From contig JAKEFM010000212.1 in NCBI GenBank assembly GCA_022616055.1, forward strand, positions 18,228 to 82,227: a stretch of 64,000 nucleotides of DNA, read 5' to 3'. The stretch is from Planctomycetota bacterium. GTDB lineage: Bacteria > Planctomycetota > UBA1135 > JAKEFM01. The position numbers and the translations under genes were made by a program. The notes beneath the pieces were generated by a model. That model was not told where the DNA came from, made no database searches, and saw nothing but the letters and a program-made list of their open reading frames with translations. Below, piece after piece: positions 7,850-34,336 of this stretch (the first letter of the stretch is position 1; each line of letters begins with the position of its first letter).

Positions 7850-9265
7850 TCAGACGGCCGCGAGGTTTTCCGGGGGGGTCGGTTTCCTTCCCTGCTCGAA
7901 CCCGAACTTCTCGATCCGGTATCGAATCTGGTCCCGATTCAGGCCGAGGAAGCGCGCCGCCTGGGACCGGTTCCCCTTGGCGCGCTCCAGGGCCTGGCGG
8001 ACGAGGTCGCGCTCGAGCTGCTCGAGGACGAGCCCGTCCGGGGGAAGGAGGAAGATGGAGGCGGGGAGGCCGTGGCGCCTCTCGTCCGCCCCCCCGACGA
8101 TCTCCCGGGGGAGATCGGCCCGGCGGACGATCCCTCCCTCCGCGAGGAGCACCGCCCGCTCGACGGCGTTGCGCAGCTCCCGGACGTTGCCCGGCCAGGG
8201 GTAGCGCTGGAAGGCCTGGAGCGCCGCGGGCTCGATCTCGGAGACGTCCTTCCGGAACTCCTTCCGGAAGTGCGCCAGGAACATGCGGGCGAGGGGCTGG
8301 AGGTCCTCGGGGCGTTCCCGCAGCGGGGGGATGAGGACCGGGATGACCTTGAGCCGGAAATAGAGGTCGCGGCGGAAGCGGCCCGCCTCCACTTCGGCGT
8401 CGAGGTCCCGGTTCGTGGCGGCGACGATGCGCACGGAGACCCTCAGGTCGCGCGTCCCCCCGACGCGCCGGAAGGACTTCTCCTCCAGGACCCGGAGGAG
8501 CTTCGCCTGCAGGCCGGGGGAGAGGTCTCCGATCTCGTCGAGGAAGAGGGTCCCGCCGTCCGCCAGCTCGAAGAGCCCGCGCTTCTGGACCTTCGCGTCG
8601 GTGAACGCTCCCCGCTCGTGTCCGAACAGCTCGGACTCGAGGAGGGTCTCGGGGATGGCGGTGCAGGTGACGTTCAGGAACGGGCGCTCGGCCGTCCGCC
8701 CTTCGTGGTGGAGGGCGCGGGCGGCGAGGCCCTTTCCCACTCCCGACTCCCCGAGGAGGAGGATCGTCGTCGCCTCGCTCTGGGCGACCCGCCGAAGGAG
8801 GTGGACCACCTCCCGCATCGCGGCGCTCTCGGCGACGAGGTTGGGGAGGCCGAACTGCCGCTTCTCCTCCTCCTGCCGGCGGGCGAGCTGGCGCCGGAGG
8901 GAGTAGGCCTCGAGGGCGCGCTCGACCCGGACCAGGAGGTCGTCGGCCTCGTAGGGCTTGGCAAGGTAGTCGTGCGCCCCCTCCCGGACGGCGGCGACGG
9001 CCCCCGCCAGGCTCGCGTGCGCGGTCAGGAGGAGGACCGGCACGTCGGGCGAGAGGGCCCGGATCGACTTGAGCACCTCGAGCCCCGTCCGATCCGGGAG
9101 CCGGTAGTCGAGGATGACCAGGTCCGGGGTCTCCCGGGAGAAGGCCTCGAGCGCGGCCCCGCCCTCGTCCGCCTCCTCGACCTCGTAGCCCGCCTCCTCC
9201 AGGCTCGCCTTCAGGGACCACCGGATCATCTTCTCGTCGTCGACGATCAGGATTCGGGCAGGCAT
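7850..9265 (-). CDS. Sigma-54-dependent response regulator (NtrC/AtoC family: REC + AAA+ + Fis-type HTH)
   Basis: ILIVDDE...DLVILDYRLPD (REC). GESGVGKG (Walker A), GAFTDA/ESELFGHERGAFT (GAFTGA-like sigma-54 contact loop), GTLFLDEIG and WPGNVRELRN (AAA+). C-terminal NRSQAARFLGLNRDQIRYRI (HTH). Confidence 0.95.
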   Translation of the reverse strand: MPARILIVDDEKMIRWSLKASLEEAGYEVEEADEGGAALEAFSRETPDLVILDYRLPDRTGLEVLKSIRALSPDVPVLLLTAHASLAGAVAAVREGAHDYLAKPYEADDLLVRVERALEAYSLRRQLARRQEEEKRQFGLPNLVAESAAMREVVHLLRRVAQSEATTILLLGESGVGKGLAARALHHEGRTAERPFLNVTCTAIPETLLESELFGHERGAFTDAKVQKRGLFELADGGTLFLDEIGDLSPGLQAKLLRVLEEKSFRRVGGTRDLRVSVRIVAATNRDLDAEVEAGRFRRDLYFRLKVIPVLIPPLRERPEDLQPLARMFLAHFRKEFRKDVSEIEPAALQAFQRYPWPGNVRELRNAVERAVLLAEGGIVRRADLPREIVGGADERRHGLPASIFLLPPDGLVLEQLERDLVRQALERAKGNRSQAARFLGLNRDQIRYRIEKFGFEQGRKPTPPENLAAV

Positions 9266-9310
9266 GCTGGTGGGTTGGGGGTGCCGGTCACGCGGGACAT
9301 TCCACCACCC

Positions 9311-9332
9311 CGCCGGGGAATATTCCCCGGCG
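9311..9332. promoter_or_regulatory. Perfect 22-bp palindrome in the divergent regulator/kinase intergenic region
   Basis: cgccggggaat|attccccggcg, 11+11 with no mismatch, 46 bp upstream of the regulator ATG (9265). A second TTCC-N-GGAA element (ctttcctggaaag) lies at about 9394-9406. Confidence 0.6.
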
Positions 9333-9448
9333 TTCCGCTGCCCGAGCCCCCGCCGGGAGGCCTTCCTGCATACCGCGGGCCTGCCGTTGGCTTTCCTGGA
9401 AAGGGCCGTACAGTGCCGAAGCGGTCACGGGATCGGAGCGAGATACAC

Positions 9449-11779
9449 GTGAAGCAGCGGGTCCTCGCCCCCTCCCCTGGAAAGAGCGACGCGGAGGTTC
9501 TCGCCCGTCTCTCCGGGGCGGTGGAGCCCCATCTCGGGTCGATCGCGGAAGGGTGCGCCGACGTTCTCCTCGGGCGCGAGGAGGCGAGGCGGTACTTCGC
9601 CGGGGAAGAGGGGAAGTGCCTCGACCGGACCGAGGAGCTCCTCGCCTGGCTCCGGGGGCTCTTCTCCGTCGAGGTCGAGTCGACCCGCCGGGCGCGGTGG
9701 GAGCGATTCGGCGGAGTCTGCTTCCGGATGGGGCTTCCCGTCCAGGTCGTCGTGGCCTGCGTCGGGGCCGCCCGCCAGCGGCTGGCCGAGATCCTGCGCC
9801 GCCGTCTCTCGCGGAGCCGGGACCTGCTCGCACGCTCCGTGAACGCCCTCCACCGCACGCTCGACACCGAGCTGGGCGGGATCCTCGAGGCCCACGAGGA
9901 GCACCGGCTCCGGGGGGTCGAGGAGAATCGACGACTGCTCGCGGAGGCGGAGATCGACCGCACGCGCAGGGAGGCCGAGGAGCGGTTCTGGCTGCTGGCG
10001 GAGGCGACGACCCTCGGGATCTACGACTGGGACATCCCGAAGGACCTCCTCTGGTGGAGCGAGGGGTTCTACCGCCTGTTCGGCTACGAGCCGGGGACCC
10101 GGACGTCGAACATCGCGTGGTGGAAGAAGGGGATCCACCCGAAGGACTACCCCCGCGTGGTCGCGGGGATCGAGAAGGCGATCGAGGAGAAGGCGCGGTT
10201 CTGGACCGACGAGTACCGGTTCGCCCGGGGGAACGGGACCTACGCCTGGGTCCTCGACCGCGGCTACTTCATCCGCGACGAGGCGGGGCGGGCCGCCCGG
10301 ATGGTGGGGGCGATGATCGACCTCTCGGACCGCCGCGAGTCCGAGGAGCGGTTCCGCCTCCTCGCGGAGGCGACGAACGACACCGTCTGGGACTGGGACC
10401 TCGTCAAGGACGTCGTCTGGTGGGGGGAGGGATTCCGGCGGATGTTCGGCGATGCCCCGGGGACGAGCGGCTGCATCAACAACTGGTGGACGCTGAGGAT
10501 CCATCCGGAGGACCGGGAGCGGGTCTCGGCGGGGCTCAAGGCCGTGGTCGAGAAGAGCCTCCCGTTCTGGACGGAAGAGTACCGGTTCCGGCGCGCGAAC
10601 GGGACCTACGCCGACATCCTCGACCGGGGGTACACGATCCTCGACGACTCCGGGAAGCCCGTCCGGATGGTCGGCGCGATGATGGACGTCACGGACCGGC
10701 GTCAGGCCGAGCAGGAGATCCGGCGTCAGAGGGACCTCGCCGAGCGGATCCTCCGCAGCAGCCGCGAGGCGATCGTCGTCGTCGACCGGGAGCTCCGGTT
10801 CACGCTCTGGAACCCCGCCGCGGAACGGATGTCGGGCCTGAAGGCGGAGGAGGTCCTCGACCGGAATGTCTTCGAGGTCTTCCCGTTCATCCGGGAGATG
10901 GGGGACGAGGGGGGCCTCTTCCGCGCTCTCGCGGGGGAGCCGGTGTCGCTGCGCCGCCGCCGCTTCCACATCCCCGCGACCGGGCGGGGCGGCCTCTACG
11001 ACGCGCAGCTGAGCCCGCTGCGGGACGAGAAGGGCGAGATCGTGGGGGTCCTCTCCGTCTCCCGGGACGTCACCGAGGAGGAGCGGATGAAGGAGACCCT
11101 CGGGCGCGCGGAGCGCTTCTCCGCGCTCGGCGAGGTCGCGGCGATGATCGCCCACGAGGTCCGCAACCCCCTCACGGCGACGAAGGGGGTGCTCCAGGTC
11201 CTGCTGCGGCGGCTCCCCCAGGAGTCCGCCGATCGCGCGGCGGTGTCGGAGACGGTGGAGCGGCTCGACGCCCTCGCCCGTCTCATCACCGACCTCCTCT
11301 CGTTCTCCCGGCCGATCCACGTCCAGGTCCGGCCGCTCGACGCGCGGGAGGCCCTGCGCACGATCGCGGAGGGTCTCGGCCGGGAGGAGGGGTTCCGGCT
11401 CCTCTCCGTCCGGTTCGAGGACCCGGGGGACGTCGGCCGGATCGCCGCCGACCCCGCCCTCCTCTGGATGGCCTTCCTCCACCTCGCCCGCAACGCCGTC
11501 GAGGCGGCGAACGGCCCCGCCGAGATCACCCTCCGGGCGGAGCGCGTCGGGGAACGGATGGCGCTCCGGATCCTCGACCGGGGCCCCGGCATCGATCCGG
11601 CCGTCGGCTCGAAGCTCTTCTCCCCCTTCTTCTCCACGAAGCCCGGCGGGACCGGCATCGGACTCGCCATGGTGAAGCGGATCGCGGAGGCCTTCGGCGG
11701 CGAGGTCGAGGCCTCGAACCGGCCGGGAGGCGGGGCGGTCTTCACCCTCTACCTCCCGCTCGCGGAGGCCGAAGCGTAG
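9449..11779 (+). CDS. Soluble sensor histidine kinase: globin-coupled-sensor-like N-domain + 3 PAS + HisKA + HATPase_c
   Basis: GTG 9449 is the first in-frame start after junk in track ORF 7193..11779. H-box MIAHEVRNPL, N-box LARNAVEA, G-boxes DRGPGI and GGTGIGLAMV. PAS_3-like repeats are present (WW.EGF.R.FG). Confidence 0.9.
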   Translation: MKQRVLAPSPGKSDAEVLARLSGAVEPHLGSIAEGCADVLLGREEARRYFAGEEGKCLDRTEELLAWLRGLFSVEVESTRRARWERFGGVCFRMGLPVQVVVACVGAARQRLAEILRRRLSRSRDLLARSVNALHRTLDTELGGILEAHEEHRLRGVEENRRLLAEAEIDRTRREAEERFWLLAEATTLGIYDWDIPKDLLWWSEGFYRLFGYEPGTRTSNIAWWKKGIHPKDYPRVVAGIEKAIEEKARFWTDEYRFARGNGTYAWVLDRGYFIRDEAGRAARMVGAMIDLSDRRESEERFRLLAEATNDTVWDWDLVKDVVWWGEGFRRMFGDAPGTSGCINNWWTLRIHPEDRERVSAGLKAVVEKSLPFWTEEYRFRRANGTYADILDRGYTILDDSGKPVRMVGAMMDVTDRRQAEQEIRRQRDLAERILRSSREAIVVVDRELRFTLWNPAAERMSGLKAEEVLDRNVFEVFPFIREMGDEGGLFRALAGEPVSLRRRRFHIPATGRGGLYDAQLSPLRDEKGEIVGVLSVSRDVTEEERMKETLGRAERFSALGEVAAMIAHEVRNPLTATKGVLQVLLRRLPQESADRAAVSETVERLDALARLITDLLSFSRPIHVQVRPLDAREALRTIAEGLGREEGFRLLSVRFEDPGDVGRIAADPALLWMAFLHLARNAVEAANGPAEITLRAERVGERMALRILDRGPGIDPAVGSKLFSPFFSTKPGGTGIGLAMVKRIAEAFGGEVEASNRPGGGAVFTLYLPLAEAEA
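9980..10711 (+). repeat. Tandem duplication of a PAS module inside the kinase gene (2 x 366 nt)
   Basis: ERFWLLAEATTLGIYDWDIPKDLLWWSEGFYRLFGYEPG... aligns with ERFRLLAEATNDTVWDWDLVKDVVWWGEGFRRMFGDAPG..., with a period of exactly 122 codons. Confidence 0.7.
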
Positions 11780-27069: not shown

Positions 27070-27804
27070 ATGGAACGGCGGAGCCAGTATCGAATCGAGC
27101 TCGGGGAAAAGAGCACCGTCGAGGTGAGCATCCTCGTCAAGAACCGGCCGCTCATGGTCGGCCGCCTCCACGACGTCTCCGCCGAGGGGGCGGGGGTGGT
27201 GCTCCCGAGCCTCGCGAGCGCCCCTCTCGCCGTCGGCGAGGAGGCCGAGCTCGTCTTCGTCGGCAAGACGATCGTCAAGCCGCTGCGGGTCTCCGCGGTC
27301 CTCGTCCACCACCGGATCGAGGGGAGGGGGGCGGAGGCGGTCCAGCACTTCGGATTCGACTTCACGAACAAGGACGGGTTCGACGAGCTCCTGATCGCCC
27401 AGGACCTCCACGTCCTCTTCAACCGCCGCAAGACCCGGCGGGTCGAGCCGGACCCGGAGGAGCCGGTCGAGGCCCTCCTCGAGGACGAGGTCCGCGGCAA
27501 GTCGGGATCGGCGCGCGTCGTCGACCTCTCGACGTCCGGGGTCGGGCTCCACGTCACCTCCAAGGTCGACTCCCGGTTCGCCGAGGTGGAGAAGGTCCGC
27601 GTCGCGCTCCGGCTCCCGGGGATGACCGAGGACCTCCGGCTCGAGGGGAACGTCCGTCACCGCTCGGAGACGACCGGGGGAGGGATGCGGTACGGCATCG
27701 AGTTCGACCGGGTGCGGACGCCCCGTTTCGCCGAGCAGCAGGCGGTCCTCGTGCGGTACGTCGCCGGCTGCCTGCGCCAGCTCCTCAAGACCGGCGCGAA
27801 GTAG
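27070..27804 (+). CDS. Tandem PilZ-domain protein (putative c-di-GMP receptor)
   Basis: Two complete PilZ signatures: RRSQYR...DVSAEGAG and RRKTRR...DLSTSGVG. SD AGGAG lies 5 nt upstream of the ATG. Confidence 0.87.
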   Translation: MERRSQYRIELGEKSTVEVSILVKNRPLMVGRLHDVSAEGAGVVLPSLASAPLAVGEEAELVFVGKTIVKPLRVSAVLVHHRIEGRGAEAVQHFGFDFTNKDGFDELLIAQDLHVLFNRRKTRRVEPDPEEPVEALLEDEVRGKSGSARVVDLSTSGVGLHVTSKVDSRFAEVEKVRVALRLPGMTEDLRLEGNVRHRSETTGGGMRYGIEFDRVRTPRFAEQQAVLVRYVAGCLRQLLKTGAK

Positions 27805-28115
27805 CGCGCCTCGCGACGCTTCCCGGCCCGCCCGGGCCGCGGGTAGGATCGCGCCCGCTCTCCCGCCCCCGCGACGCGCGAGCGGGAGGATGCCATGATG
27901 CGACGCCCCGCACCGTTTTCAGCGACGTGGGCCTCCTCCCCGCGGCTCCGGCGCAGGCCCCTCGGGCGGCGAAGGCGAGCCGCGGGGACTTCGCGCGCGG
28001 CGACCCCCTCCTCGATGCGGCCCTCGCCCGGCGGGGTGAGTGGCCGGACGACGCCTCCCCCCCGGGCGCGGCTTCGCTTCACGAGGTCGACGGAGTAGCC
28101 GGGCGAGCCCGGATC

Positions 28116-30377
28116 ATGCGGATCACGTTCCGACTGATCGTCTCCCTCGTCGTCGTGGTGGCCGTGGTCGCGGCCACCTCGGCGTGGATCCACGTCGGCC
28201 AGGACCGCGCCCAGCGGCAGGACGAGATCGAGAGGCGATCTCGCCTCCTCGCGCTCACCCTCCAGGAGGTCGTCCAGCCCCTGGTGTCGGAGGAGACCTC
28301 CGAGCGGCTCCGGGGAATCGTCGAGAAGTACGCGAACCGGGAGCGACTGGCCGGCGTCGCGGTCTACGACAGGGAGGGACGCCTCCTCGCGGCGACCGCC
28401 GCCCTCTCCGGGGTGTTCGCCGAGCCCCCCGCGGCCGTCCGAGAGGCCCTGTCGAGATCCGTGGACGGGAGCGCGTTCGTCGAGATGGGGGGGAAGGAGG
28501 TCCACCTCTACGCCCTGCCCCTGACGGACGGGGGCGGGGTCGCCCACGCGCTCCTGATCGTCCACGATGCCTCCTTCATCCAGGCCCAGTTGCGGCAGAT
28601 CTGGCTGCACGCCTTCGTCAGGGTCCTCGCCCAATCCGCGCTCATCACCCTCGTCACGCTCCTCGTCATCCGGTGGAGCGTCTTCGGCCCGATCGCCCGG
28701 ATGGCGGAGTGGATGCGCGCGCTCCGCTCGGAGGGTGAGGTGCGCCCCCCGGAAGTCCCCAAGGGGGACCTCTTCGCGCCCATCGCCCGGGAGGTGACCA
28801 CCTTTGCCCGGCATCTGTCGGCGGCCAAGGCCGCGGCCGAGAGGGAGGCTGGACGCCCGCGGAAGGATGAGCCGGCCGGGACCCCGGAATGGCTCAAGGA
28901 GCATGTCCGCGCCCGCCTCGGGGACAAGCCGCTCTTCGTCGTCTCCAACCGGGAGCCCTACATGCACCTGCGGCGCGGCAGGGACGTGGAGGTCATCGTC
29001 CCTGCGGGAGGGCTCGTGACCGCGCTGGAGCCCGTGCTTCGGGCCTGCGGGGGGACGTGGATCGCGCATGGGGCCGGCGACGCCGACTTCGAGGTGACCG
29101 ACGGGAAGGGCCGGCTCCAGGTCCCCCCCGGCGACCCCCGCTACACCCTCCGGCGCGTCCCCCTCTCCAAGGAGGAGGAGCAGGGGTACTACTACGGCTT
29201 CTCCAACGAGGGGCTCTGGCCGCTCTGCCACCTCGCCCACACGCGCCCCATCTTCCGGGCCGACGATTGGGCCCAATACCAGCGGGTCAGCGAGAAGTTC
29301 GCGACGGCGGTCCTCGAGGAGGTGGAGGGGCTCGAGGATCCCTTCGTCCTCATCCAGGACTACCACTTCGCCCTCCTCCCGCGCCTCCTCAAGGAGCGCC
29401 GTCCCGAGATCCGGGCCGCCCTCTTCTGGCACATCCCCTGGCCCAATCCGGAGGCCTTCGGGATCTGTCCCTGGCAGCGCGAGCTGCTGCAGGGGATGCT
29501 CGGGGCCGATCTCGTCGGGTTCCAGACCCAGTCCCACTGCAACAACTTCCTCGACACGGTCGACGCCGCGCTCGAGGCGCGCGTGGACTGGGAGCGCTTC
29601 GGGGTCTCGAAGGAGGGCCACCTCACCCTGGTCAAGCCCTTCCCGATCAGCGTGGCGTTCCCCCCCGTCGCGCGGGATCCCTACCCGACGCCTCCCCGCG
29701 CGAAGGACCGCGACACGCTCCTGAAGGAGCTCGGGGTCCGCGCGAGGTTCCTCGGCGTGGGGGTGGACCGGCTCGACTACACGAAGGGGGTCCTCGAGCG
29801 CTTCCGGGCGATCGAGCGCTTCCTCGAGAAGCACCCCCGCTACCAGGGGGAGTTCGTCTTCGTCCAGATCGGCGCGCCGAGCCGGACCTACATCAAGCGC
29901 TACCACGACTTCCTCGCCGAGGTGGAGGCCGAGGCGCAGCGCATCAACTGGCGCTTCAAGAGGAAAGACTGGCGCCCGATCGTCTACCTCGAGAAGCACC
30001 ACAGCCACGAGGAGATCCTCCCGTACTATCTCGCCGCGGACCTCTGCATGATCACCTCCCTCCACGACGGGATGAACCTCGTCGCCAAGGAGTTCGTCGC
30101 CTCGAGGGAGGACGGGGAGGGGGTCCTCGTCCTGAGCCAGTTCGCCGGCGCCTCCCGGGAGCTGCGGGACGCCCTGATCGTCAATCCCTACAACGCCGAG
30201 CAGGGGGCGGAGGCGATCCGGTACGCGCTCGAGATGGACCCCGAGGAACGGCGGGCCCGGATGAAGGCGATGAGGGAGACGCTTCGCGAGAACAACGTCT
30301 ACCGCTGGGCCGGGAGCCTGATCGAGGAGCTCTCCCGCCTGCGGCTGCGCGAGCCCACTCCGGCGGGGAGCGAGTGA
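28116..30377 (+). CDS. otsA: Trehalose-6-phosphate synthase (GT20, OtsA-like) fused to an N-terminal 2-TM sensor and HAMP module
   Basis: The first ATG gives [25 protein letters not shown] (TM1). A ~165-aa loop, TM2 ([19 protein letters not shown]) and a HAMP-like region ([13 protein letters not shown]...[12 protein letters not shown]) follow. GT20 motifs are [49 protein letters not shown] and [13 protein letters not shown]. Confidence 0.9.
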
Positions 30378-30378
30378 G

Positions 30379-30777
30379 ATGCCCTCCGCCCTTTTCCTGT
30401 GCCGGCACAACGCCTGCCGGAGCCAGATCGCCGAGGCGGTCTGCCGGAGCCTCGCGCCGGCGTGGGACGTGGCGAGCGCGGGCTCGAGGCCGTCGGCGGA
30501 CGTGGACCGGAAGGCCGTGGAGATCCTCCGCCGCCACGGCCTCGCGATGGCGAGCCCTCGCCCCAAGGGCGTCCCCGGCCTCCCCTCCCGGCGCTGGGAC
30601 GTCGTCGTCTGCATGGGATGCGACGGCGCGGGCGCCGGCCTGCCGAGCGGTCGCTACGTCGAGTGGCCCGTCGAGGACCCCAGCGACGGGCCGATCGAGA
30701 TCTACGAGGCCCTCTTCCGGGAGTTGAGCGAGCGCGTCGGCGGGCTCGTCCGGGAAGCGGAGAGCCCCGCCCGATGA
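30379..30777 (+). CDS. Low-molecular-weight phosphotyrosine-phosphatase / ArsC-fold protein
   Basis: Starts 1 nt after the otsA stop. CX5R(S) P-loop LCRHNACRSQIAE. DPSDG (Asp loop)-like VEDPSDG. Only part of the Trx-coupled ArsC Cys triad is present. Confidence 0.82.
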   Translation: MPSALFLCRHNACRSQIAEAVCRSLAPAWDVASAGSRPSADVDRKAVEILRRHGLAMASPRPKGVPGLPSRRWDVVVCMGCDGAGAGLPSGRYVEWPVEDPSDGPIEIYEALFRELSERVGGLVREAESPAR

Positions 30778-31454
30778 TCCCGCGGGCGCGGGAGCCGTTC
30801 CGCTTCTTCGTCCGGACGAGCCTCACCCTCGTCACGGGGATCCGGGCCCGGACCGTCCGCGAGCTCGCCGGTCGCCTGAAGGAGGCCCCGGACTCCTGCG
30901 TCTACCAGCACACCCACCGGTTCCTCCAAGAGCACCAGTACCTCGTGCCGGAGCCGCCGAACGACTTCGCGTACTGGGCGACGGAGATGCTCCAGGACGA
31001 GGCGCTGGGCGAGCGCCTGGCCTCCGTCGACACGGTCCGGTTCCGCTCGCTCGGGGAGCTGCGGGCCGCCCTCCTCGGGGTCCTCGAGGACCATGTCCTC
31101 CGGAACGGGGAGGGCCGCCCCGCCCCCCCCGGGAAGGAGTTCCACTTCATGCGGGCCGTCCGCTTCTCCGTGCCGACCCGCGAGGTGGCCCACGATCTCG
31201 CCGAGTTCGGCGATTGCCTGCGCAGGGTGGGCCTCTCGAGCCTCTACCTCCACGTCTTCGAGGCCCGCCTTCGCCTCCCGAGCGTCGAGGCCAACGACTT
31301 CGCGGTCTGGTTCGAACGGGAGCTGGGGGAGGCCGAGCTCGCCCGGCGGGTGGGCCGCCTCGACCCCTACGCCCACACGCTCCAGGGCCTGCGCGCGCGT
31401 CTCCTCGCCATGGTGAGGAGCCGCCTCAAGGATCTCGGCCATGCCCCGGCTTGA
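30774..31454 (+). CDS. Conserved hypothetical protein, resembles the family I recall as DUF5752 (TreT-associated)
   Basis: ATGA overlap with the phosphatase gene. FFVRTSL...TGIRARTVRELAGRLKE...SCVYQHTHRFLQEH...NDFAYW. The family assignment is from memory only. Coding is supported by codon bias and coupling on both sides. Confidence 0.75.
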   Translation: MIPRAREPFRFFVRTSLTLVTGIRARTVRELAGRLKEAPDSCVYQHTHRFLQEHQYLVPEPPNDFAYWATEMLQDEALGERLASVDTVRFRSLGELRAALLGVLEDHVLRNGEGRPAPPGKEFHFMRAVRFSVPTREVAHDLAEFGDCLRRVGLSSLYLHVFEARLRLPSVEANDFAVWFERELGEAELARRVGRLDPYAHTLQGLRARLLAMVRSRLKDLGHAPA

Positions 31455-32661
31455 GGAGTACGCGCCGATCGTCGGCGCGGACACCCTCGAGGAGCTCTCC
31501 CTCGTCGCGGACCGCGTCAAGGGACGCTCCGTCCTCCACGTCAACTCGACGGCGGTGGGGGGGGGGGTCGCCGAGATCCTGCACCGCATGGTCCCCCTGT
31601 TCCGCGAGCTCGGCCTCGACGCCCACTGGGAGGTGATCCGCGGCGGCGAGGACTTCTACGCCGTGACGAAGAAATTCCACAACGCCCTCCACGGCCAGCC
31701 GGCGGAGTTCACGGCCCGGGACTTCCAGGTCTACGGCGAGACGACGGCGGAGAACTTGGCCCGCCTCGCGCTCGACGCGGAGGTCGTCTTCATCCACGAT
31801 CCGCAGCCCGCCGCCCTCGTGGAGAAGCGCGGGGCCAACCGCTGGGTGTGGCGCTGCCACATCGACCTCTCCCAGCCGGACGAGCGGGCCTGGGCCTTCC
31901 TCCGGCCGTACGTCGAGCGATACGACGCCTGCATCGTCTCGGCCCCCGGCTTCGCCCAGGAGCTCCCGATCCGCCAGGTGCTCATCGCCCCGTCCATCGA
32001 TCCCCTGAGCGAGAAGAACCGGGAGCTCTCCCCCGACGAGGTCCGCGGCGTCCTCGCGCGCCTCGGCATCCCGACGGACAAGCCCCTCGTCACGCAGGTC
32101 TCGCGCTTCGACCGCCTGAAGGATCCCCTCGGCGTGATCGAGGCGTTCCAGCGGGCCAAGCCCTACGTCGACGCGCGGCTCCTCCTGGTCGGGGGCTCGG
32201 CCGACGACGACCCGGAGGGGGCCCAGGTCCTCGCCGAGGTGCGGGACCGCGCCAGCGGCGAGCCGGACATCCTCGTCCACGAGCTCCCTCCCACGAGCCA
32301 CCTCGAGATCAACGCCATCCAGCGCGCCTCGACGGTCGTCCTCCAGAAGTCCCTGCGGGAGGGCTTCGGCCTCACGGTCGCCGAGGCCCTCTGGAAGGGG
32401 AAGCCGGTCATCGCGGGCGCGGTCGGCGGCATCCCCCTCCTGATCGCCCACAAGCACTCGGGGATCCTCGTCCACTCGGTAGAGGGGGCGGGCTACTGGA
32501 TGAGGCGCCTCCTCTCCGAGCCCGAGTTCGCCACCCGGCTCGGGGCCAACGGCCGGGAGCATGTCCGGCAGAATTTCCTCCTCACGCGCCACCTCCGGGA
32601 CTACCTCCTCCTCATCCTGTCCCTCGATCACCCCGGGGAGGACTTCGTCCCCCTGCGGTGA
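31441..32661 (+). CDS. treT: Trehalose glycosyltransferring synthase (TreT, GT4)
   Basis: Near-colinear by-eye match to my recollection of the archaeal TreT sequence: HVNSTAVGGGVAEILHRMVPL, FYAVTKKFHNALHG, HDPQPAAL, WRCHIDLS, PSIDPLSEKN, VSRFDRLKDP and SLREGFGLTVAEALWKGKPVI. It overlaps the upstream gene by 14 nt. Confidence 0.92.
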   Translation: MPRLEEYAPIVGADTLEELSLVADRVKGRSVLHVNSTAVGGGVAEILHRMVPLFRELGLDAHWEVIRGGEDFYAVTKKFHNALHGQPAEFTARDFQVYGETTAENLARLALDAEVVFIHDPQPAALVEKRGANRWVWRCHIDLSQPDERAWAFLRPYVERYDACIVSAPGFAQELPIRQVLIAPSIDPLSEKNRELSPDEVRGVLARLGIPTDKPLVTQVSRFDRLKDPLGVIEAFQRAKPYVDARLLLVGGSADDDPEGAQVLAEVRDRASGEPDILVHELPPTSHLEINAIQRASTVVLQKSLREGFGLTVAEALWKGKPVIAGAVGGIPLLIAHKHSGILVHSVEGAGYWMRRLLSEPEFATRLGANGREHVRQNFLLTRHLRDYLLLILSLDHPGEDFVPLR

Positions 32662-32704: not shown

Positions 32705-34336
32705 ATGAGCGCGCCCGCCGGGTCGGTGCTCTCCGCGGCCCTCGCCGCGATCCTCCTCGGCTCGCCCGGCGACGACACCGAGGACCTGCGACGGTTCCTC
32801 GCCAAGTACCGCACGGGCGCGGTCGACGCCTCGGTGATCGGCCGGCTCATCCCGAGCCTCGAGCCTCCCCCGGCCTTCCCCGCCTACGAGCGCGCGCGGG
32901 AGAAGCTGCGCCTGGACCCCACCCCGGCGAAGGCGGCCGTCCTCCTCGAGGCGGCGGTCCTCCGGCTCGCCGAGGATCCCGAGGAGGAGCTCGCCCGGTT
33001 CGCGGCCTGCCAGCCCTGGGTCGTGCGAAGGCGGGCGATCGACGATCTCTGCTCGTTCCAGGGGAAGGAGGCGATCCAGGACTGGGCCCTCGGTCTCCTC
33101 GCCGATCCCTCCCTCCCTCTCCCCGAGCGGCGCGTCCTCGTCGAGTGTCTGGGTGCGGCCCTCGCGCGCCGTCCCCGCCCGGCCGTCTACGCGGCCCTGC
33201 TCGAGGCCCTCGAGCACTCCGACGCGACGGTCCGGGGCCTGGCGGCCGAGGGGCTCGGCCCCGCGCTCGAGCGCGCCGACCTCCTCCGGTTCCTCCAGCG
33301 CCTCTTCGACGGCGACGCCGGGGTCCGATTGCGCGCGGTCCGCGGGGTCCGGGCCGCCTTCCCTCGCCTGCAGGGGAGCCTCGCGGAGAAGGAGGAGCGC
33401 CGGGCCCTCGAGCTCCTCGGCTCGAGGCTCTCCGATCCCGATGCCCACGTCCGCCTCCTCCTGGCGGAGATCCTCCGGGAGTTCCCCCGTCCCCTCCTCA
33501 TCCCCTTCCTCGTGCGGGCCCTCGAGCAGGAGGAGAAGCGCGCGGGGACGGAGGAGGCGCGACTCCGATTCCGCCTCGCGATCGAGGACCTCCTCTACCG
33601 GCTCACCGGTCTCGGCTCCCCGCCGTGGCCCGCGCCCCGCTGGCGCCAGTGGCTCGACGCCCGCAAGCCCGAGGAGGTGGCGAAGCTCCCGACGCCGACG
33701 GCCGTCCCCGGCTCCATCCACCGGACCGCCGCCACCTACTTCGGGCGGGAGGTGCGATCCGACCGCGTCGTCTTCGTGATGGACTTCTCCGGGAGCATGC
33801 GCCGGACGACCGGCAACCTCGAGCACGACCGCGGCGAGGGGAAGCGCGACCCGCGCGCCCGGATCGACGTCGCGCGCCGGGAGCTCGCCGCGTACCTTCA
33901 CCCCCTCGACGAGACGCACCGCTTCAACGTCGTCGTCTTCGCCGTGGGCGCGCTCGCCGCCTTCGACGAGCTCGCGCCGGCGAGCGCCGAGAACAAGCGC
34001 CGCGCGATGGCGTTCGTGGACCAGGTTCCGGTCAGCGGCTCGACCGACCTGTTCTCGGGGATCCTCCGGGGACTGCGCTGCGGCGGGCTCGACGCCGGGA
34101 GCCGGTTCGGGACGAGGGCGGACACCGTCTTCCTCCTGAGCGACGGGGTCCCGACGGCCGGGGCGGTGACCGACCCGGGCGACATCGCGCGCCTCGTGAC
34201 GAAGATGAACGAGGGCTCCGGCCTCACGATCAACGTCGTCGACCTCGGCGTCCGGCACGAGGCCTTCCAGAAGCACCTGCGCGAGCTCGCCGCGCGCAAC
34301 GGCGGCGAGTACATCCGGGCCGAGTCCGCGCAGTAG
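32705..34336 (+). CDS. Secreted HEAT-repeat + von Willebrand factor A (VWA) domain protein
   Basis: Start MSAPAGSVLSAALAAILLG. HEAT-like repeats (DATVRGLAAEGLG, DAGVRLRAVRGV, DAHVRLLLAEIL). VWA MIDAS VMDFSGSM ... SGSTDL ... LLSDGVPT. Confidence 0.85.
   Translation: MSAPAGSVLSAALAAILLGSPGDDTEDLRRFLAKYRTGAVDASVIGRLIPSLEPPPAFPAYERAREKLRLDPTPAKAAVLLEAAVLRLAEDPEEELARFAACQPWVVRRRAIDDLCSFQGKEAIQDWALGLLADPSLPLPERRVLVECLGAALARRPRPAVYAALLEALEHSDATVRGLAAEGLGPALERADLLRFLQRLFDGDAGVRLRAVRGVRAAFPRLQGSLAEKEERRALELLGSRLSDPDAHVRLLLAEILREFPRPLLIPFLVRALEQEEKRAGTEEARLRFRLAIEDLLYRLTGLGSPPWPAPRWRQWLDARKPEEVAKLPTPTAVPGSIHRTAATYFGREVRSDRVVFVMDFSGSMRRTTGNLEHDRGEGKRDPRARIDVARRELAAYLHPLDETHRFNVVVFAVGALAAFDELAPASAENKRRAMAFVDQVPVSGSTDLFSGILRGLRCGGLDAGSRFGTRADTVFLLSDGVPTAGAVTDPGDIARLVTKMNEGSGLTINVVDLGVRHEAFQKHLRELAARNGGEYIRAESAQ

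Follow-up and report, generated by a model that had tools for sequence, protein, structure and literature searches.

Accumulation of trehalose-6-phosphate (T6P) is toxic, so cells normally express the synthase gene otsA together with one for a phosphatase. The phosphatase of the OtsAB pathway, OtsB, is a haloacid dehalogenase (HAD) protein (Pfam PF02358, Trehalose_PPase) with DxDGT motifs and a Mg2+-dependent aspartyl-phosphate mechanism. All T6P phosphatases that were found described in the literature belong to the HAD superfamily, including the "novel" enzyme of Sulfolobus (PMC7688234). In T. tenax, the genes of trehalose synthesis are joined to that of a mechanosensitive channel in the TPSP-GT-MSC operon, whose synthase depends on an accessory protein for its activity (PMC3634074). 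Here, we describe a trehalose locus in a 64-kb stretch of DNA from a Planctomycetota bacterium (contig JAKEFM010000212.1; the whole stretch is called the window), in which a gene for a cysteine phosphatase of the LMWPc family, with a fold shared by protein tyrosine phosphatases of low molecular weight (LMW-PTPs) and arsenate reductases (ArsCs), stands directly behind otsA in the position of otsB.

Judged from genomic context, the LMWPc protein is probably a non-orthologous T6P phosphatase that replaces OtsB and derives from a thioredoxin-type ArsC. T6P is proposed as its substrate because the gene takes over the OtsB slot, excludes OtsB, and follows a synthase that is known to need a co-expressed phosphatase. 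A literature search for a non-HAD T6P phosphatase and for otsA together with LMWPc or arsC returned nothing relevant, and a full-text search gave no link to T6P for DUF5752, for OrfY (Protein Data Bank, PDB, entry 4CSO) or for an LMWPc/ArsC-fold protein.

OtsB and the LMWPc gene in trehalose operons

The GC content of the window is ~72%, hence many spurious open reading frames (ORFs) are listed. One coherent gene set with family support was identified on the + strand, comprising otsA, the LMWPc gene, a DUF5752 gene, and treT (Table 1). The first-pass annotation of this locus had described a gene of the CX5R(S) low-molecular-weight phosphatase fold that starts 1 nt after otsA and is ATGA-coupled to a gene for a protein of ~226 aa, which in turn overlaps treT. 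The coordinates agree with this layout, with a 1-nt spacer between the otsA stop (30377) and the LMWPc start (30379), an ATGA overlap between the LMWPc stop and the start of the 226-aa DUF5752 gene, and a 14-nt overlap between the latter and treT. The region from 28116 to 32661 would form a single translationally coupled trehalose-metabolism operon encoding a sensor-OtsA, LMWPc, DUF5752, and TreT. Rfam and promoter/terminator scans of 26.5-34.5 kb revealed nothing over background.

The statement of the same annotation that no HAD-type T6P phosphatase is present in the window was confirmed in two ways. Translation of the 64 kb in all six frames contained no HAD motif I (DxDGT), and a hidden Markov model (HMM) trained on 57 OtsB genes of related operons gave no match in the window (best E = 2), with positive controls at 1e-69 and 1e-75.

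To place the locus among its relatives, 80 genome loci were fetched with DUF5752 as the anchor, and the window proteins and an OtsB probe were mapped onto them. The widespread operon order, seen in many bacterial phyla, was OtsA-OtsB-DUF5752-TreT; both OtsA and OtsB were present in 55 of the 80 loci, and every full-length OtsB copy scanned (57/57) belonged to PF02358. The LMWPc gene lay between OtsA and DUF5752 in 8 of the 80 loci, in the window, and in the Nitrospirota locus L003. No locus contained both LMWPc and OtsB, so that the two are mutually exclusive, and the OtsB HMM gave no match at E<=0.01 on 15 LMWPc loci (227 kb in total). The junctions were as tight as in the window: the spacing between OtsA and LMWPc was 0-12 nt across the LMWPc loci, the LMWPc-DUF5752 junction was mostly an ATGA overlap, and the DUF5752-treT overlap was -14 nt in 10 of 11 operons. 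Because it recurs across phyla with these conserved, identical junctions, the arrangement in the window is beyond chance.

In the OtsA tree, the LMWPc operons fell within one clade, where they were interleaved with OtsB operons whose OtsA showed 69-76% identity. The OtsA catalytic domains of the two operon types were 65-76% identical, and therefore the product of the synthase should be the same in both. In four loci (L013, L020, L022, and L051), OtsB was located behind TreT; OtsA abuts DUF5752 directly in the first three, and the upstream flank of L051 is too short to show OtsA. L013 and L020 branch in the OtsA tree as sisters to operons of the LMWPc type; the position of the phosphatase gene is thus evolutionarily labile in this clade, which suggests its repeated turnover.

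The same association was found from the side of the LMWPc protein. Its subfamily comprises ~54 clusters at 90% identity and is set off from the remaining sequences by a score gap. In all subfamily loci with readable upstream DNA (15/15), the LMWPc gene directly followed a gene for a 753-aa OtsA. The OtsA-LMWPc pair was retained in L001, L005, and L088, which have neither DUF5752 nor TreT, and this persistence identifies OtsA, not TreT, as the partner of LMWPc. None of the 76 outgroup LMWPc/ArsC loci (28-41% identity) was near a trehalose gene. The closest divergent relative, P0028, is without the catalytic Asp and stands in an unrelated context with no trehalose gene nearby.

Other genes were noted around two of these isolated pairs. 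In L005, the pair is followed by a gene for a DUF1646 membrane protein (8425-9621); another such gene follows TreT in one other operon, and the protein may be an occasional accessory transporter. In L088, a mercury-resistance cluster (positions 1-2086; HTH_5 regulator, MerT, and MerA-like reductase) lies a few kb upstream of the pair, which also adjoins PIN/VapB toxin-antitoxin genes; these surroundings hint at a mobile or island context.

Fold, residues, and ancestry of the LMWPc protein

The window LMWPc protein, recorded under the name "low molecular weight phosphatase family protein", matched PF01451 with 64.3 bits (cut-off 23.2). Its AlphaFold2 model (predicted local distance difference test score 93) shows the Rossmann-like fold with a four-stranded parallel beta-sheet, and Foldseek comparison gave TM-scores of 0.76-0.83 to ArsC and LMW-PTP structures. 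The closest solved protein was Cg_ArsC1' (3T38, E 2e-35) by profile and the ArsC2 of D. indicus (8P6M, TM-score 0.83) by structure, followed by the further ArsC relatives 3RH0, 1Y1L, and 2L17; LMW-PTPs, Wzb, and YwlE ranked somewhat behind the ArsCs by both measures. Of the three groups among which the first-pass annotation had proposed to place the protein (LMWPc, ArsC, and Wzb), the LMWPc-fold arsenate reductases are the nearest by profile and structure, but no ArsC or Wzb/Etp equivalog cut-off was reached. The model of thioredoxin-coupled ArsC (TIGR02691) scored 35.3 bits against a cut-off of 174.3, that of the glutaredoxin-coupled Synechocystis type (TIGR02689) 51.3 bits against 157.6, and the Wzb/Etp NCBIfam models 20-22 bits against 243-247. 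The protein does not belong to the HAD trehalose-phosphatase family (PF02358) and has no similarity to OtsB.

The P-loop reads CRHNACRS (C8, C13, R14, and S15), and the general acid is in D100-P101. In an alignment of 51 subfamily members, C8, N11, C13, R14, S15, D100, P101, and G104 were invariant (51/51; motifs CxHNACRS and DP), as were W29, S33, G35, P38, D43, K45, P62, W73, W96, and Y109. The acid motif is DPSDGP in the window protein (DPxDGP in the subfamily) and not DPYY, and the aromatic residues of the phosphotyrosine (pTyr) pocket are absent.

The cysteines of the window protein are Cys8, Cys13, Cys78, and Cys81, with Gly at position 85, so that the three-cysteine relay of thioredoxin-coupled ArsC is incomplete. 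The partial Cys triad reported in the first-pass annotation is thus correct, and its doubt about arsenate reductase activity is justified by the lack of conservation in the subfamily, where Cys81 is present in 38 of 51 members, Cys85 in 25, and neither in 8. Members embedded in operons occur in all three redox-cysteine classes. This pattern fits an ancestral ArsC that was taken over as a hydrolytic phosphatase and whose reduction relay came under relaxed selection; the redox cysteines would be superfluous and decaying, and the window protein would have retained Cys81 and lost the equivalent of Cys85.

The nearest outgroup in the representative library (P0251, P0255, and P0257) is made up of tandem-domain ArsC proteins 281-460 aa long, and P0251 has an ArsR-like N-terminal stretch. 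These proteins carry the P-loop CVHNAGRSQ and a GCGDxCP pair and resemble Cg_ArsC1' of C. glutamicum, a likeness which points to the ancestry of the LMWPc subfamily.

Candidate functions of the LMWPc protein

In the proposed mechanism, the chemistry of which is borrowed from the CX5R family, OtsA would make T6P and the LMWPc protein would hydrolyse it to trehalose. The P-loop CRHNACRS would hold the 6-phosphate of T6P, Cys8 would attack it to form a phosphocysteine intermediate, and Asp100 of the DP-x-DGP motif would protonate the O6 leaving group of the sugar and then activate water. Unlike in the HAD enzyme OtsB, catalysis would need neither Mg2+ nor an aspartyl-phosphate. Sugar phosphate esters are within the reach of CX5R cysteine phosphatases, as known for laforin, SEX4, and PTP-like phytases, and ACP1 acts on flavin mononucleotide. 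Of the functions suggested in the first-pass annotation, T6P hydrolysis is best supported, by the shared slot, the exclusion of OtsB, and the constant adjacency to OtsA (15/15), all of which are features of genomic context.

Several points weigh against this assignment. We know of no LMW-PTP-fold enzyme that has a sugar phosphate as its physiological substrate. OtsA-OtsB fusions are known, but no OtsA-LMWPc counterpart was found in 5.8 billion clusters and 1.8 billion representatives, where the multi-domain matches were actinobacterial ArsR-ArsC-ArsC fusions. Both redox cysteines (GCGDxCP) are kept in 25 of the 51 subfamily members, and those with the full triad could still reduce arsenate; single-Cys thiol-coupled ArsCs also exist. 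The DUF5752 operons L050, L067, and L080 have no phosphatase gene nearby, and therefore a T6P phosphatase can be encoded elsewhere; a canonical otsB could likewise lie outside the 64-kb window.

The absence of a nearby phosphatase from some related operons, which would allow for an OtsB elsewhere in the genome, would also suit a regulatory protein phosphatase that acts on Tyr, Arg, His, or Ser of the sensor-OtsA, DUF5752, or TreT and thereby turns trehalose synthesis on or off. Such a role, which resembles the control of OtsA or TreT by dephosphorylation suggested in the first-pass annotation, would agree with the protein Tyr/Arg phosphatases Wzb, PtpA, and YwlE among the fold relatives, and with the fact that LMWPc always accompanies an OtsA with a signalling-type N-terminal module (transmembrane, Cache-like, and HAMP-like). 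It is disfavoured, however, by the sister operons, which have the same sensor-OtsA, DUF5752, and TreT but carry OtsB and no LMWPc gene within +-10 kb; the regulator would therefore be dispensable there, and a regulatory role would need two independent changes. No conserved kinase adjoins the LMWPc gene, the DPYY of the pTyr pocket is replaced by DPxDGP, and the Wzb/Etp models remain far below their cut-offs (20-22 bits vs ~245). Taken together, a regulatory function is unlikely. An even lower probability is given to hydrolysis of another pathway substrate, such as glucose-6-phosphate or glucose-1-phosphate, to supply glucose to TreT. TreT needs free glucose as its acceptor (PMC7688234, PMC13597711), which is scarce in cells, and the gene sits between otsA and the DUF5752-treT pair; yet LMWPc stays with OtsA where DUF5752 and TreT are absent (L001, L005, and L088), it excludes OtsB instead of adding to it, and operons of the OtsB type have TreT without an extra phosphatase. 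This makes such a supply function very unlikely.

Least probable, if only slightly more remote, is that the protein still acts in the manner of the ArsC branch, reducing arsenate or serving in other redox chemistry, and is linked to otsA for a reason apart from T6P, such as stress co-regulation. The closest solved relatives are indeed ArsCs (3T38, 8P6M, 3RH0, 1Y1L, and 2L17), and the GCGDxCP pair shared with Cg_ArsC1' occurs in the 25 members mentioned above. Against this, the triad is missing from the window protein and from half of the family, 8 of 51 members have neither redox Cys, and the operon position is kept throughout; the NCBIfam ArsC equivalogs are far under cut-off (51 vs 158 and 35 vs 174 bits). 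No ars genes (arsB, acr3, or arsR type) were found in the flanks of the LMWPc gene in the window, L001, L003, and L005, and the ArsC-like outgroups (76 loci) never adjoin trehalose genes.

T6P hydrolysis by the LMWPc protein thus remains the favoured reading, and it is rather likely that an ArsC-descended cysteine phosphatase in the place of OtsB constitutes a new form of the OtsAB pathway. A metal-independent cysteine T6P phosphatase of the ArsC/LMW-PTP fold would exemplify non-orthologous gene displacement in a clear-cut way. The current annotations of such genes, as "arsenate reductase" or as "low molecular weight phosphatase family protein", would then need correction, as would the scoring of genomes with OtsA-LMWPc as being without a complete OtsAB pathway. 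The subfamily would offer a natural series for the change from arsenate reductase to sugar-phosphate phosphatase. The proposal in its widest form stands at about an even chance: the protein would be the first non-HAD T6P phosphatase, in the middle of a change of function, with half of its subfamily still carrying a superfluous ArsC Cys pair, inside a module that is wired to the membrane through OtsA (transmembrane-Cache-HAMP) or through DUF5752 (fusion to an MscS-type channel).

Operon partners and described relatives

The GT20 catalytic domain of the window OtsA spans residues ~274-753. The OtsA equivalog model (TIGR02400) scored 427 bits, which is below its cut-off of 565 but above the GgpS model (293 bits). 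The true start of otsA is the ATG at 28116 ("MRITFRL", 753 aa) and not the GTG at 27927 of the longest ORF (816 aa), because all homologues are 753 aa long with an equivalent start; an automatic pipeline could therefore call the gene 63 codons too long. The N-terminal module of 273 aa consists of a first transmembrane segment, a periplasmic single-Cache-like domain, a second transmembrane segment, and a HAMP-like linker. Hydropathy placed the transmembrane segments at residues 1-29 and 162-194. Pfam matches to the module were weak: those of the window protein, to SMP_2 and dCache, were sub-threshold, and homologues matched sCache_like, sCache_3_2, and HAMP at E 2e-4 to 8e-6. A module of ~274 aa with two transmembrane segments was kept in 39 related loci, all of which have a free DUF5752. 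By its predicted domains, OtsA with this module looks like a one-component sensor-glycosyltransferase.

The DUF5752 assignment made in the first-pass annotation held in an HMM search (PF19027, 190.6 bits against a cut-off of 23). The family has at least 1200 database matches in at least 560 GTDB species, and identity is 45-65% across Elusimicrobiota, Omnitrophota, Chloroflexota, Planctomycetota, Nitrospirota, and others. TreT was located directly downstream of DUF5752 in 78 of the 79 loci with room for it, the exception being a split TreT. The co-occurrence of DUF5752 and TreT, which the first-pass annotation had raised, is therefore a direct adjacency, and the protein is the constant member upstream of TreT, not an occupant of the expected OtsB position. 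As it accompanies OtsB and LMWPc alike, DUF5752 is outside the phosphatase step and does not substitute for OtsB. A role as the missing phosphatase, considered on account of its invariant His, Asp, and Glu, was rejected given its equal presence in OtsB operons and its tie to TreT. The protein is built from two repeats in tandem (internal repeat E 2e-4), both of which contain an NDF-x-W motif along with conserved His, Glu, and Asp. It matched T. tenax OrfY (4CSO) by profile over residues 3-214 (E 5e-31, 29% identity) and by Foldseek with a TM-score of 0.67; no other fold relatives were found in the PDB.

In 12 of the 80 loci, DUF5752 stands at the C-terminus of an MscS-type channel, fused to transmembrane helices and the PF00924 beta-domain; wherever the record names the taxon, these loci are from Chloroflexota or Dehalococcoidia. 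OtsA was soluble, without the membrane module, in all 10 MscS-DUF5752 loci where it could be scored. The membrane modules are complementary, being on OtsA where DUF5752 is free and on DUF5752 (MscS) where OtsA is soluble. Its adjacency to TreT and the MscS fusions make DUF5752 a probable adaptor or regulatory partner through which TreT would be connected to osmotic or membrane signals, and the scaffold or regulatory role suggested in the first-pass annotation is plausible on the same grounds. A role as a transcription factor, as in the PDB label of OrfY, was judged unlikely given these fusions and the near-neutral isoelectric point of the family (median 6.5, not basic). The survey gives a frame for the function of DUF5752/OrfY as a TreT-adjoining member of a four-gene operon with a solved structure and a mechanosensitive-channel fusion in Chloroflexi.

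The window TreT matched PF00534 (E 9.5e-20) in addition to PF21269 (TreT_GT1) and was 52-74% identical to the TreT proteins of all related operons; the TreT equivalog model (NF041139) scored 369 bits, below its cut-off of 775. A fifth conserved gene was sought after TreT and none was found, the 34 ORFs downstream in related loci being heterogeneous. A gene for a protein with HEAT repeats and a von Willebrand A domain (32705-34336) starts ~44 nt past treT in the window; since none of the genes behind TreT is conserved across the 34 related loci, it is probably unrelated and outside the operon. On the other side, 311 nt upstream of otsA and on the same strand, is a gene for a protein with two PilZ domains of the cyclic di-GMP-binding type (27070-27804).

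Table 1. Coordinates of the trehalose gene set in the window and of MscS-DUF5752 fusions in related loci (locus identifiers precede positions outside the window).
Feature	Coordinates	Strand	Basis
otsA (trehalose-6-phosphate synthase, GT20)	28116..30377	+	PF00982 E 5.5e-116
OtsA N-terminal membrane sensor module	28116..28934	+	hydropathy, weak Pfam matches
LMWPc/ArsC-fold cysteine phosphatase in OtsB slot, 132 aa	30379..30777	+	PF01451 E 1.9e-17
DUF5752/OrfY-family protein, 226 aa	30774..31454	+	PF19027 E 2.9e-56
treT (trehalose glycosyltransferring synthase homologue, GT4)	31441..32661	+	PF21269 E 7e-56
MscS-DUF5752 fusions	L038:9275-10654; L067:3058-4470; also L025, L034, L041, L043, L045, L061		
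Further MscS-DUF5752 fusion loci	L073, L075, L081, L083		

When compared with OtsB, the LMWPc protein shares the slot, the neighbours (OtsA upstream, DUF5752-TreT downstream), the tight junctions, and the inferred reaction, whereas its fold is unrelated and its predicted mechanism is a metal-independent CX5R phosphocysteine one. The thioredoxin ArsCs (Cg_ArsC1', the pI258 ArsC of S. aureus, and D. indicus ArsC2; TM-scores 0.79-0.83) are its closest relatives; they have the CxHNAxRSQ P-loop and the W..DP acid motif as well, and their GCGDxCP pair recurs in half of the subfamily. Unlike in these enzymes, the redox cysteines are unconserved, the third Cys is missing from the window protein, and the genomic context is trehalose, not ars. 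The subfamily is further distinguished by its signature of Cys13, W29, DPxDGP, and Y109, and it misses the ArsC cut-offs by ~100 bits or more. With Wzb, Etp, PtpA, and YwlE, it shares the fold, the P-loop, and the Asp general acid, but it is without the aromatic residues after DP, and no genes for bacterial tyrosine kinases (BY-kinases) or capsule genes are nearby. Laforin, SEX4/LSF2, and PTP-like phytases apply this catalytic chemistry to phosphate esters of sugars or inositol, and the reaction proposed for LMWPc is therefore chemically reasonable; these enzymes have the dual-specificity or classical PTP fold, and their substrates are polymers or inositol phosphates, not T6P.

For DUF5752, the described counterpart is T. 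tenax OrfY, with which it shares the two-repeat fold and the NDF-x-W motifs. The gene orfY is reportedly co-transcribed with treT in T. tenax, which matches the adjacency of DUF5752 and TreT found here. The PDB labels OrfY a "transcription factor", but the bacterial DUF5752 proteins are non-basic and, in Chloroflexi, fused to MscS, which argues against a DNA-binding role. The TPSP-GT-MSC operon of T. tenax (Zaparty et al. 2013, PMC3634074) differs in its components, namely a TPS-TPP fusion, a GT, and a separate MSC, with neither DUF5752 nor LMWPc; it nevertheless provides a precedent for the link between trehalose and mechanosensitive channels that is seen in the MscS-DUF5752 proteins.

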